A DNA stretch of 64,000 bases, taken from the IMG/VR virus record IMGVR_UViG_3300034024_000020, positions 51,704-115,703 of that record. The stretch is one strand, 5' to 3'. This document shows positions 15,944 to 64,000 of this stretch, piece after piece. The stretch is from a virus. Below the pieces are notes generated by a model. The model worked only from the letters and a program-made list of their open reading frames with translations, was not told where the DNA came from and ran no database searches. The position numbers were made by a program, and so were the translations under genes. Each line of letters begins with the position of its first letter. The first letter of the stretch is position 1.

Positions 15944-16512
15944 TGATTCACTACCTCTATTTAATCACAAGATTAGATGGTGAACGCTATGTGGGGGTCA
16001 CAAAAGACCCCCACAGACGCGGTTGGCAGCATAGGAATGGTTACGGAAGTTCGGAGCTAAAAGGCCAAGATTTTACTTTAGAAATCTTGGAAGAGGGAGA
16101 AGAATCCTTTATTTACTTACTAGAAGATGCTGCGATTAAAGCTTATAAATGTAGTTTGAACAAGGTAGTCGGAGGCAAGTTCGGCCATGGCTTACAAGGT
16201 ATTGCTAATGGTAGGGCTAAGCTTACAGAAGCCGATGTATACTTGATCAAATGTTTAGCTGCAAAAAAGATTCCTCAAAAAGAAATAGCCGAAAGATTCG
16301 GAGTAAGTAGACAAACTATAGGAGGTATAGCTACAGGTGCTAATTGGAAGCACGTGAAGGGCCCTATTACCTATGGTCGTTCTTGTGTGCCTGAAGAATT
16401 AAGGTGCCAATTAAAATACCTAAAAGAAAAAGGTATGAATGCCGCTGAAATAGCGAGACATACTGGATTAAAGTACACTACTGTTTACAGTCACGTACGG
16501 GAGATAGAATGA
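15943..16512 (+). CDS. free-standing GIY-YIG homing endonuclease with HTH domains
   Basis: YLYLIT..YVGVT..R..QH; two C-terminal HTH motifs. Confidence 0.85.
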   Translation: MIHYLYLITRLDGERYVGVTKDPHRRGWQHRNGYGSSELKGQDFTLEILEEGEESFIYLLEDAAIKAYKCSLNKVVGGKFGHGLQGIANGRAKLTEADVYLIKCLAAKKIPQKEIAERFGVSRQTIGGIATGANWKHVKGPITYGRSCVPEELRCQLKYLKEKGMNAAEIARHTGLKYTTVYSHVREIE

Positions 16513-17456
16513 TATTATTTACGGCGGATTTACATTTAAAACTAGGGCAAAAAAATGTACCTGTAGACTGGGCATTAAACCGTTATAGAATGTTTTTCAA
16601 ACAAATCTATAACATTGAAAAAGAATGTGACCTTCATATTATGGGAGGCGATATTTTTGACAAGCTTCCTAGTATGGAAGAATTGGAGTTATTCTTTGAA
16701 TTTGTTAGCGGAATGCAAATACGTACCTTAATGTACGCAGGAAACCATGAGGCAACAAAAAAAGGTAAAACCTTTCTTTCTAATCTTAAAACTGCTGTTA
16801 ATAAAATCAACCCCCTAGTTCATATCATTGATGAGATTTATGAGGAAGACAAGTTTAGTGTCGTGCCTTATGAGTTCATTAAGGTACCGGGGGTTTGGGA
16901 TAAGTTAGATAAGACTAAGCCTGTTTTCACCCATATTAGAGGAGAAATTCCTCCTCACGTAGTACCGGAGATAAACCTTGACCTTGTTGCTGATTTTCCT
17001 GTCGTTTACCTCGGCGATCTCCACAGCCATTCTAATTGCCAACGGAATCTCGTGTACCCAGGGTCACCTATGGTTACCTCGTTTCACAGATCACGTGTGG
17101 AAACTGGCTATATTATTATTGACGGAGATGATCTCACTAATTGGAGTTGGTATACTTTTGAGTTACCACAGTTAATTCGTAAGACCGTAAAAAATCCTGA
17201 AGAAATGGTTCCAGGTAACTATGATCACGTTATCTACGAATTAGAGGGAAATATCTCTGATTTGAGCAAAGTTGAGTCGTCCGACCTTCTGGACAAAAAG
17301 ATTACGCGACGAAAAACAGATACTGCGCTGTATTTAGACAGTAGTATGTCAATTTCTGATGAATTAGCCGAATATTTGACTTATATTCTAGAGCTTGAAG
17401 ATGCCCAAGTAAAAAAGGCAGTAGGAGTATTTAATGATTACGCCACTTCTGCTTGA
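16509..17456 (+). CDS. D12: SbcD/Mre11-like nuclease (T5 D12)
   Basis: DLH, GDIFD, GNHE, GDLH, YPGSP. Confidence 0.95.
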   Translation: MILFTADLHLKLGQKNVPVDWALNRYRMFFKQIYNIEKECDLHIMGGDIFDKLPSMEELELFFEFVSGMQIRTLMYAGNHEATKKGKTFLSNLKTAVNKINPLVHIIDEIYEEDKFSVVPYEFIKVPGVWDKLDKTKPVFTHIRGEIPPHVVPEINLDLVADFPVVYLGDLHSHSNCQRNLVYPGSPMVTSFHRSRVETGYIIIDGDDLTNWSWYTFELPQLIRKTVKNPEEMVPGNYDHVIYELEGNISDLSKVESSDLLDKKITRRKTDTALYLDSSMSISDELAEYLTYILELEDAQVKKAVGVFNDYATSA

Positions 17457-60234: not shown

Positions 60235-60254
60235 GGGAAGCTAGAGGAGATTTT

Positions 60255-60791
60255 ATGACCTACGTTGTTTTCGATCTCGACGGAACCGTGATCGACAGTT
60301 CCCACCGCCACCTTGCGAAGCCTGACGGCTCCGTAGACTTGGAACACTGGTTCGACAACGCCACGCCGGAAAAAATCGCCCTCGACGGATTGCTTCCGCT
60401 TGCGGACTCCATGCGCGCAATCCACCGGGCCGGTCATCGGGTCATTATCTGCACGTCCCGCTCGTTTCAGCCCGCCGACCTGAAATTTTTGGAGGATAAT
60501 GACCTCCCCTATCACCACCTTTTCAGCCGTCCCGGCTTTTTCGTCGGGCGCGACGATCCGCGCTATGCCGATAGCTATTTCGGCTTCATCGGGGATGCGC
60601 GTTCCGACGAACTAATCAAGGCGGAACAGCTTGCCGAATTTTTCCGTTCGGAAGGCTTCGAAAGCATTGCGGATGCTCCTGCTATCATGTATGATGACAA
60701 TCTGAAGGTCATTCGCAAGATGAACGAAATCGGCCTTCCCTGTCTCAATGCGGTCAACGTGAACGCGCAAATTTTAAGGAACGCGGCATAA
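60255..60791 (+). CDS. HAD-family phosphatase (PNKP-like; possible analogue of T5 Dmp)
   Basis: FDLDGT, ICTSR, K, MYDD. Confidence 0.88.
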   Translation: MTYVVFDLDGTVIDSSHRHLAKPDGSVDLEHWFDNATPEKIALDGLLPLADSMRAIHRAGHRVIICTSRSFQPADLKFLEDNDLPYHHLFSRPGFFVGRDDPRYADSYFGFIGDARSDELIKAEQLAEFFRSEGFESIADAPAIMYDDNLKVIRKMNEIGLPCLNAVNVNAQILRNAA

Positions 60792-60911: not shown

Positions 60912-61184
60912 ATGAGAAAAATCAGATACAAACTCGATATCGGCTATGCCGGTTGTGGCGACGAGGGAACGGAAACGGTCCCCGACGATATGACCGATGC
61001 CGATATTGACGCTATGGTTCAGGACATGGCGCAAGAACACGCCGCAAGCTGGGAAGGCGATAATCGTCTCTGCTGGGATGAGGATATGTCCGAGGAGGAC
61101 TATCAAGACGCCACGGAACATTTTTACGAAGGCGTTTGCGGCTCGTGGTCTTTTGTCCTTGACGGCGACGAAGACGAGGACTAG
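60912..61184 (+). CDS. highly acidic protein
   Basis: AAGGA RBS; D/E-dominated sequence. Confidence 0.7.
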   Translation: MRKIRYKLDIGYAGCGDEGTETVPDDMTDADIDAMVQDMAQEHAASWEGDNRLCWDEDMSEEDYQDATEHFYEGVCGSWSFVLDGDEDED

Positions 61185-61196
61185 GATAAACCGACC

Positions 61197-61331
61197 GTTC
61201 TGGATTTGTTCCCGGGCGGTCGGAATTCCGACCGCGTTTTCTCAAAACGCACCCCTGCTAAATATAACAGGTGAAAAATCTTTGTCAAGCCCATCTTTTC
61301 TGTTGCAAACATTTTTTACCTAGCCTAGAAC
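61197..61331. promoter_or_regulatory. repeat cassette 3
   Basis: GTTCTGGATTTGTTC, 20-bp palindrome GCGGTCGGAATTCCGACCGC, divergent promoters. Confidence 0.82.
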
Positions 61332-61386
61332 AATCTCACGGCGGCGGGACGGTCCCAAAGCTGACAACCGACAAGGATGATTTCAG

Positions 61387-61638
61387 ATGCGACGTTCAAT
61401 TTTGGGGCTGTGTGCCCTTGCCCTTCCGCTCGCAGCCCTCGGCGCGTGCAACATTCCCGATCCGCGACCGGCGCAGCAAGCCGAATGCGACAATCTCGGC
61501 GGCACCTACCGGGCCGATCCGGAGGGCGCTCGCGAGGACGAGTGCACGGTGACGGCGCGCAATGGCGTTCCCTTCACCATCGAATACGACGACGTTCATA
61601 CCGCTTCGGGCGCTCCGGCGACCGGCGGCGACGACTAA
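61387..61638 (+). CDS. lipoprotein (superinfection-exclusion candidate)
   Basis: MRR + hydrophobic core + LGA-C lipobox. Confidence 0.8.
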   Translation: MRRSILGLCALALPLAALGACNIPDPRPAQQAECDNLGGTYRADPEGAREDECTVTARNGVPFTIEYDDVHTASGAPATGGDD

Positions 61639-61639
61639 G

Positions 61640-61955
61640 ATTTTAGGGCCGACCGTTCCCAAGTCGGCTAAAACGCGAGTGATCGCTACCGGCCCTAAAT
61701 CGCTTCCGATGCTATCTCAATTTAGCAAGTCGAGACTAAAATAACCTGCCTAGCAAGCGGCTCTCGCAGGGGACCTCGAAAAATGTCCTGCCGCAAAGGG
61801 ACAAGGGAGACTTGGAAACTCCCCGGAAGCAAAATGAAAAGGTGACGGTACAAGCCCGTTAATCCGCGACCGTGCGGAGCCACCTTTTCCCTATTGACTG
61901 TCAAGCCGATAATGGGTAGCCTAGGGAGGCAGTCACGGTTCCGGTCGTCCTAGGT
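61640..61955 (+). ncRNA. candidate structured non-coding RNA
   Basis: No credible ORF; multiple perfect helices, a 3-way junction and a GNRA loop. Confidence 0.5.
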
Positions 61956-61961
61956 TGGGGC

Positions 61962-62078
61962 GGCCGGAATTCCGGCCCCGCCCGCAACGGTCGGTTTCCT
62001 CTAAGACCATAATAGCAGGTTCGGCAAGCCTGTCAAGCAAACATTTCGCTTGCAAGCAAATTATTTTTCCTCTAACAA
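61962..62078. promoter_or_regulatory. repeat cassette 4 (no intact LexA-type box)
   Basis: GGCCGGAATTCCGGCC, minus TTGACA-16-TATTAT, plus TTGCAA. Confidence 0.78.
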
Positions 62079-62128
62079 GGTTCTACCGGGATGGCCCGGC
62101 GACCGTAAACGAAAGGATGAAGGTCAAG

Positions 62129-62284
62129 ATGGCGATTAACAAAAGACGAGCGGAGCGCATGGCGCGACGCAGCGACGCGGAATTGGTCCGCTTCGTTCAT
62201 GCCAAAACGCTTTCCAGCGCGGCGGCCTATTACGCACTCGAAAAGCGGGGCAAGCTGTCCCTGCTCGCGAAGGAGGTGCGCTAG
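62129..62284 (+). CDS. small basic protein (51 aa)
   Basis: AAGGA RBS; start MAINK. Confidence 0.6.
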   Translation: MAINKRRAERMARRSDAELVRFVHAKTLSSAAAYYALEKRGKLSLLAKEVR

Positions 62285-62460
62285 TGAACGCTCGCGCCAC
62301 CCGTCGCCGCGAAGGGGCGCTTGCTCGCCTTCGCACTCAGCTTCAATCGGGCACTCGCCCCTCTCAGGTTCCCGGCCTGAAAGGTTGCCGGGTAGACTTG
62401 ACGGAAGCCGATGTTTCCCGTATCAAGGCGGAAATCGCCACCCTCGAACGGAGGATTTAA
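62284..62460 (+). CDS. small basic protein (58 aa, not in ORF track)
   Basis: AGGAGG RBS; GTG overlapping TAG; MNARATRRREG.. Confidence 0.65.
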   Translation: MNARATRRREGALARLRTQLQSGTRPSQVPGLKGCRVDLTEADVSRIKAEIATLERRI

Positions 62461-63610: not shown

Positions 63611-63832
63611 ATGCAACTTGCTAATTTCACCCCGGAAGAGCAGAAGCTGGCACTTTCGGAAATTCGCCGGAACCTCGACGAAGCCGAACGGATTTTCGAG
63701 GGGAACGATTATCACGCCACGGATGCAGAGCGGATGACGCGGCTTCACTTTCACTTGAACGAGGGGAGCCGTCAGCTTTCGCGGATCAAGGTCGCGGCTC
63801 GCCGTCAGCTTTGGTACGCGCAGCAACGCTAA
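63611..63832 (+). CDS. hypothetical helical protein
   Basis: AAAGGA RBS. Confidence 0.6.
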   Translation: MQLANFTPEEQKLALSEIRRNLDEAERIFEGNDYHATDAERMTRLHFHLNEGSRQLSRIKVAARRQLWYAQQR

Positions 63833-63843
63833 GGTTTCTGGCC

Positions 63844-63990
63844 GTTCCGGTTTTGTTCCGGGGCGGCCGGAAGTCCGGCCCCGCCGCCGCAGGCCGGGCC
63901 TCCCTAGAACTTAAATAGCACCACCTAATAACGCTGTCAAGCGAAAAGATTGCTTGACATAACTTTTTTCACCTAAGCAGAATATAGCAC
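63844..63990. promoter_or_regulatory. repeat cassette 5
   Basis: GTTCCGGTTTTGTTC, GGCCGGAAGTCCGGCC, TGTCAA...TTGACA. Confidence 0.8.
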
Positions 63991-64000
63991 CTAGCGCCCG

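Follow-up and report, generated by a model that had tools for sequence, protein, structure and literature searches.

A gene-free stretch behind a small early gene of a T5-like phage very probably encodes a folded RNA built in part from twister-like, probably non-catalytic modules

The gene-free stretch behind a small early gene of a T5-like phage very probably encodes a folded RNA. It occupies positions 61640-61955 of the window, the 64,000-nt stretch of DNA that was analysed. Its first and third domains, M1 (61642-61699) and M3 (61836-61889), are copies of one three-way-junction module of about 55 nt, and a third copy (M2) lies elsewhere in the same genome. The three copies share one fold with compensatory base changes, and the parts that would make a type-P3 twister ribozyme catalytic are absent from them. 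The reading we favour, held with somewhat less than even confidence, is a structured RNA of the plus strand in which the twister-like modules are non-catalytic and delimit, stabilise or dock the adjacent folded RNA.

The host record is a 115,703-bp IMG/VR virus record, of which the window is the right 64 kb, and the phage was placed as T5-like from its DNA polymerase, SbcC-like nuclease and tail protein. The record ends overlap by about 170 bp (window 63830-64000 against G000:C1:1-171); the two end copies differ solely in the 4-nt centre of a palindrome, which is inverted (ACTT versus AAGT), either as a flip-flop-like signature or as an assembly effect. The final 7 kb of the window is an early-type region of small plus-strand genes, with cassettes each framed by a repeated promoter module and by a repeated GTTC box followed by a GC-rich palindrome. 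One early gene (60243-60791, plus strand) has a polynucleotide-kinase-type HAD phosphatase domain (phrog_415; PF25109 just below cut-off), and this gene is kept in the relatives G001 and G002, in which the gene order differs and no counterpart of 61640-61955 was present.

The promoter architecture in front of the 83-aa ORF (Table 1) recurs before each small early gene in the repeat families and the module listing, and would probably act as the promoter of the unit. The ORF is an orphan: its sole match among 5.8 billion proteins was itself, and neither PHROG nor Pfam gave a match. The box-palindrome module downstream aligns to four sister modules, is also present at both record ends, and probably forms the 3' boundary, either as a terminator-like hairpin or as a protein operator. 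Its palindrome at 61957 is without a clear U-tract, so termination there is something that we infer. The gene downstream of the region has its own promoter. In the transcription unit that we propose, a promoter at about 61283-61330 would be followed by the lipoprotein ORF, by about 300 nt of RNA and by the palindrome at 61957-61983, and the stretch would be the non-coding tail of this short early unit.

Table 1. Features of the early-region stretch and of the second locus that carries the module (window positions unless a record is named)
Feature	Position	Strand	Remarks
Probable promoter of the transcription unit	61283-61330	+	repeated upstream-box / -35 / -10 module of the early region
83-aa ORF	61387-61638	+	lipoprotein-type signal peptide; stop codon 3 nt before M1
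M1 outer stem	61642-61651/61690-61699	+	
M1 P4-like stem	61653-61655/61665-61667	+	9-nt loop 61656-61664
M1 hairpin	61675-61678/61683-61686	+	GUGA tetraloop cap; preceded by A-rich junction
M1 junction UAC	61687-61689	+	its AC can pair with GU 61663-61664
D2, predicted five-way junction	61702-61831	+	7-bp closing stem 61702-61708/61825-61831
M3 outer stem	61836-61844/61881-61889	+	
M3 P4-like stem	61845-61848/61856-61859	+	7-nt loop 61849-61855; then junction UAA
M3 hairpin	61863-61867/61874-61878	+	6-nt loop cap
M3 junction GC	61879-61880	+	complementary to GC 61854-61855
Linker	61890-61936	+	predicted stem 61895-61900/61928-61933
Box-palindrome module copy	61937-61983		GTTC box then GC-rich palindrome (61957-61983); repeat families D1, D5; inverted repeat I14
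Strong sigma-70-like promoter	62009-62036	-	11/12 matches, extended -10; would transcribe antisense through the region
M2, third module copy	G000:16439-16493	strand of its tRNA	outside the window
1.55-kb ORF-poor RNA locus	G000:C1:15916-17516 (L090:979-2573)		from promoter (11/12 matches) to strong terminator; holds M2 and the CUA tRNA

The first-pass annotation had described the stretch as ORF-free and densely paired. Stop codons were indeed found in all six frames of 61640-61955, and only two ORFs touch it, of 60 aa each (61562-61744, plus; 61722-61904, minus), neither with a Pfam match. Every stem that had been quoted exists: the pairing of 61642 with 61690 and the alternative partner at 61663, the GNRA hairpin at 61675-61686, and the junction closed by 61836/61881 with its two arms. 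The segments at 61868 and 61934, put forward as a possible pseudoknot, are complementary, but comparative support for this pairing is absent. The same genome holds, outside the window, an ORF-poor stretch of about 1.55 kb, much larger than this gap.

On the plus strand the 316 nt folded better than most shuffled controls (z = -2.31; 2 of 100 shuffles folded as well), and the minus strand gave z = -0.72. Three sub-domains reached z of about -3.3 to -3.5 each, with boundaries picked after folding. Random 134-nt windows of this genome average z = -0.9, and 7.7% of them reach z <= -3.3. Against such an RNA-rich background, and with boundaries chosen post hoc, folding energy alone is not decisive.

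M1, in which the minimum free energy and centroid structures coincide (z = -3.38), scored 88 bits against model R1, and it was aligned end to end with M2: all 13 pairs of the three helices are kept, five of them by double compensatory changes, and the two copies do not differ in the 9-nt loop, in the GUGA tetraloop or in the short strands of the junction. M3 is a divergent copy (z = -3.47 on the plus and -3.38 on the minus strand; only 4.9 bits against R1), which nevertheless aligns in register with the other two, with the loop frame kept and its letters kept in part. Over the three copies 11 of 11 tested pairs are kept, 8 with compensatory changes. None of 500 shuffles reached the observed percentage paired or the observed covariation score, and alignments slid out of register were 19-59% paired. 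All three copies come from one genome, with no independent lineage among them.

A descriptor made from the shared features matched exactly M1, M2 and M3 in 342 kb, that is, on both strands of three complete phage genomes of 111-116 kb, and had no match in 20 block shuffles (13.7 Mb in all). When it was relaxed, 8 matches were obtained against 6.5 expected, giving no extra copies. A two-base-pair contact between loop and junction is GU/AC in M1 and M2 and GC/GC in M3, a U-A to C-G change; since M3 was partly selected by these features and then counted, this pseudoknot covariation is weak evidence (about 1 in 16 by chance). The earlier suggestion of a functional RNA is supported in part: for two of the three domains, the three paralogous copies with compensatory changes favour a selected, folded plus-strand RNA, while the central domain is without comparative support.

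Two other descriptions of the modules were tried and rejected. M1 as a compact H-type pseudoknot was given up because its loops have unsuitable lengths and M2 does not keep the register. A dispersed palindromic repeat of the REP- or MITE-like kind was set aside, with only three copies, M3 far diverged, and none further in the own genome.

Nothing across the whole window reached the gathering thresholds of Rfam 15. The statement that no known RNA family is present was correct at this level, but a permissive scan gave one sub-threshold match, to the type-P3 twister family (RF03154, clan CL00120), at 61645-61696 (23.3 bits, E = 0.057). Genome-wide a second match was found at G000:16438-16494, which is M2 (18.9 bits). 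Both lie below the curated gathering score of 39.9 bits, and scaled over all 4227 families the window-wide E-value of the M1 match would be about 3. Four related records contained no match, which leaves M1 and M2 as the only ones in five records; M3 was not matched by RF03154 at E <= 10. The family model aligns M1 and M2 end to end, and nearly all of its highly conserved consensus letters outside the catalytic block are matched.

The anatomy of the twister, including its conserved L4 features and pseudoknots, has been described (PMC5408937). The module has the helix order of the type-P3 form, with outer P3, P4 hairpin, A-rich junction, P2 and a 2-nt junction. Loop L4 is recognisable too: a G-C pair closes it, the U...A pair and the CCC run are present, and its bulged dinucleotide could pair with that of the junction (T2). 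The loops of M1 and M2 show these features with one extra U, M3 has AC instead of CCC, and the P4 hairpin of M2 equals the Rfam twister consensus except for one inserted C. In all three copies the two dinucleotides of the T2-like pairing are complementary, and one change between copies is compensatory; the pairing is only 2 bp long, and complementarity was itself a descriptor criterion for M3.

The module has neither loop L1 nor stem P1, and it lacks the scissile U-A site and the GGG strand of T1. Where the model has 25-26 positions for L1, P1 and the U-A site, M1 and M2 have 5 nt. P2 ends in a cap, a tetraloop in M1 and M2 and a 6-nt loop in M3, at the point where the twister has L1, P1 and the scissile bond. 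No AGGG strand for the CCCA of L4 was found inside the module, and no GGG in cis; distant AGGG-containing words common to both loci are at chance level for shared 9-mers. The GAG of the twister consensus is base-paired in the capped hairpin. Since the catalytic loop, P1 and the cleavage site are absent, the modules were not filed as ribozymes, and the ribozyme idea of the first-pass annotation was dropped. The module resembles the twister scaffold without belonging to the family, and it is probably without catalysis. We are aware of no non-catalytic relative of the twister fold in nature.

An active role would have the modules as reduced or split twisters that obtain the catalytic loop from elsewhere, M1 and M3 excising D2, and M2 trimming the leader of a tRNA-like unit. 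The twister-P3 similarity of M1 and M2, the position of two modules on either side of D2 and of M2 10 nt before a tRNA, the polynucleotide-kinase-type phosphatase gene 1 kb upstream, and the tendency of ribozymes to cluster near one another and to occur in phages (PMC10085705) would fit it. Besides the reduction to 5 nt, the loop CCC without a GGG partner in cis and the GAG held in the tetraloop hairpin, it has against it that natural twisters lose their activity when a conserved A or G is mutated (PMC11662667; PMC5408937), and that a published search aimed specifically at non-circular twister permutations came up empty (PMC10085705). We regard self-cleavage as having only a slight chance, and a non-catalytic module as the better account.

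M2 is followed, at a distance of 10 nt, by a tRNA whose anticodon is CUA (amber; tRNA at 16505-16575), and both are within the 1.55-kb locus of Table 1. For this locus no Rfam family and no match in GenBank phages were found, and comparison with the two relatives gave nothing beyond the promoter. The same module at the early-region stretch and at the 1.55-kb locus makes it a shared part of two otherwise unrelated non-coding loci. In the relative G001, a promoter-led, ORF-poor RNA locus with a UUA (ochre) tRNA was observed (G001:C1:39701-40540, L079), without a copy of the module.

The phage is rich in RNA genes. It encodes 35 tRNAs, a GOLLD RNA (RF02032; G000:C1:47251-47715, L095:9251-9715; 156.9 bits, cut-off 150) with a tRNA embedded at L095:9320-9390, and a permuted tmRNA (RF04321; G000:C1:25866-26271, L094:6897-7180; 69.7 bits) for which ARAGORN gave the tag ANDNEPMEEMELRLAA. 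The relative G002 also encodes a permuted tmRNA.

The RNA is probably of the plus strand, on three grounds: the GNRA tetraloop and the twister match occur on this strand only, M2 lies on the strand of its tRNA between promoter and terminator, and D2 folds better on the plus strand. The minus strand carries two near-consensus sigma-70 promoters (62036-62009 and 61288-61261), back to back with gene promoters and with no ORF ahead, which would yield antisense RNA through the cassettes. From the first of them (11/12 matches, extended -10), an antisense transcript of about 200-260 nt could end at the minus-strand terminator-like sites at 61805-61787 and 61758-61744. The minus-strand fold, however, does not beat its shuffled controls (z = -0.72 overall and -1.45 for D2), the module features are plus-strand specific, and the terminator stems are weak and rich in G-U pairs, which makes it highly unlikely that the antisense RNA is the functional product.

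All helices of the modules are pure Watson-Crick and would therefore form also on the minus strand or in single-stranded DNA. A DNA-level element could thus be imagined, as protein-binding sites, as single-strand hairpins for replication priming, or as a stop of the T5-type two-step injection. The perfect helices fold on either strand (M3 has z = -3.38 on the minus strand), other repeated palindromes of the region look operator-like, and the stretch lies in the early part of a T5-like genome; the counterpart of this part in T5 contains a non-coding injection-stop region with many repeats. On the other hand, only one strand has the tetraloop, the complementarity of loop and junction, and the twister match, M2 is within a promoter-to-terminator RNA locus beside a tRNA, and there are only three, highly diverged copies. 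We consider a DNA element very unlikely and keep to a plus-strand RNA.

The mutually exclusive pairing of the 5' segment, which the first-pass annotation had taken as a possible switch, is present in M1. It is absent from the paralogue M2 in the alignment, judged by eye, and a switch built on it is not supported, the alternative pairing not being kept. More generally, the modules might be regulatory aptamers for a ligand or a protein, tandem and riboswitch-like, and might govern read-through at the 61957 hairpin or the way in which the neighbouring RNA is processed. What recalls an aptamer is the compact junction, with its conserved loops and putative pseudoknot, and the tandem position of copies in what would be one transcript, where M3 precedes the palindrome by 68 nt; a second partner for the 5' strand of P4 is also available 15-20 nt downstream in each module. 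Yet no Rfam riboswitch family was found at E <= 10, M2 has not kept the alternative fold, the gene that follows is served by a promoter of its own, and M2 is inside a non-coding RNA and not in a leader. Regulation by aptamers is quite unlikely on this evidence, and modules with a structural role are still preferred.

On the plus strand the central domain D2 folded with z = -3.31, near the 8th percentile for random windows of the genome; the minus strand gave -1.45. No homologue of D2 was found, and comparative support for it is absent. It was tried as a tRNA and rejected, with no ARAGORN prediction in the window and no Rfam tRNA match at E <= 10; its closing stem has 7 bp, but there are 8-10-nt loops and an extra arm. 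Six adjacent nucleotides of the M1 loop are complementary to the loop of the last D2 hairpin (61811-61819); the estimated chance of this is about 3%, which makes it a kissing-loop lead that carries modest weight. Of the 9-mers common to the two loci, one could pair with the M1/M2 loop and one includes AGGG, where about 2 are expected by chance, and both serve as leads only. One of these words has four occurrences in the genome, and at the M2 locus the prediction shows it paired.

The linker region (61890-61990) gave z = -1.47, an energy ordinary for this genome, and is without comparative support. A decayed promoter at 61885-61954 was discarded, as the likeness to the promoter modules was not above shuffles. 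A pseudogene was discarded too: tblastx and blastn against the own genome and both relatives matched the palindrome only.

It could also be that the RNA is real, but that its modules are decayed ribozymes or tRNA-region modules without present function, with D2 and the linker as rearrangement filler of a hypervariable early region. The whole unit including its ORF is orphan, G001 and G002 differ in gene order and have no such stretch, and the energy of D2 is ordinary for this genome, all in accordance with decay. Neutral decay, however, would break pairs; the compensatory changes in every stem, and the loops, which M1 and M2 share unchanged and M3 keeps in part, therefore indicate continued selection on the fold. 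Decay was judged unlikely, and a module under present selection is retained.

No homologue outside this phage was found. The DNA of 61300-62130 and of the giant RNA locus had no blastn match in GenBank phages. Three motif patterns found no homologue in IMG/VR, where a loose pattern gave 59 chance-level matches of which none passed model R2; two patterns in the JGI metagenomes and one in the GTDB genomes found none either, and protein-anchored searches via two neighbouring genes found no copy. Two complete relatives and 42 further related records were searched with DNA, R1 and R2, with no accepted copy. A weak R2 match of 21.9 bits in one relative, at G002:C1:107573-107622 (L096:1501-1550, plus strand), has a near-identical capped hairpin, but was rejected as a module copy with P4 and the outer pairs broken, in antisense to the neighbouring genes and under a 138-aa ORF. 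The early region holds this match as well; the same two conserved genes flank it, and it is on the opposite strand.

In the explanation that we prefer, the plus-strand RNA would fold into three self-contained junction domains, the first (M1) and the last (M3) being paralogues. The module would be a non-catalytic, compact, pseudoknotted building block on a type-P3 twister scaffold, and its copies would most likely act as rigid boundary or docking units, without cutting RNA, that delimit and stabilise the folded RNA between or beside them, D2 in the early region and the tRNA-like unit at M2. We propose such a protective or architectural role from the shape of the module and its position.

A more specific idea has two forms, and we give it a small chance. 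In the first, the twister fold without its catalytic loop would be a reusable architectural or nuclease-blocking module. In the second, it would be one half of a split or trans-completed twister, whose CCCA docks a distant strand in D2 or in the tRNA-like unit, with partner-dependent cleavage or docking. Small self-cleaving ribozymes have been catalogued by the thousand, and we know of no role established for them in phages. If true, either form, the architectural or the split, would give the first natural example of an RNA that derives from the twister without being a self-contained ribozyme. A twister junction and loop, probably with the pseudoknot, kept with a tetraloop in place of the active site suggest use of the scaffold in folding, docking or nuclease blocking. 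The module is repeated three times in a phage that also has GOLLD, a giant RNA of 1.55 kb and an amber-suppressor-type tRNA, and its place beside the embedded tRNA is defined, so it offers a short, testable handle on the giant RNA. As far as can be read from one genome, this may be a phage RNA, ornate or small, built from a twister-like scaffold without an active site.

The small stable RNAs C and D of phage T4 (species 1 and 2) are likewise small and folded, are co-transcribed and processed with other RNAs, and are of unknown function. They sit in a tRNA cluster, whereas among the modules here only M2 has a tRNA neighbour. Neither the region nor the giant RNA locus was matched by the GOLLD and ROOL models, and the conserved 3' domain of GOLLD (RF02032) had no match in the window or in 61100-62300 at E <= 10, with a model that works on this genome, as the true GOLLD shows by its score. 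GOLLD and ROOL, both phage RNAs of unknown function, form RNA cages and are associated with tRNAs (PMC12286853). The region described here differs from them in being only about 300 nt long and in lying behind an ORF of the early region and not in a tRNA island. It resembles them in being phage-encoded, protein-free-looking and multi-junction; they stand beside or enclose tRNAs, and M2 adjoins the tRNA-like unit in the 1.55-kb locus.
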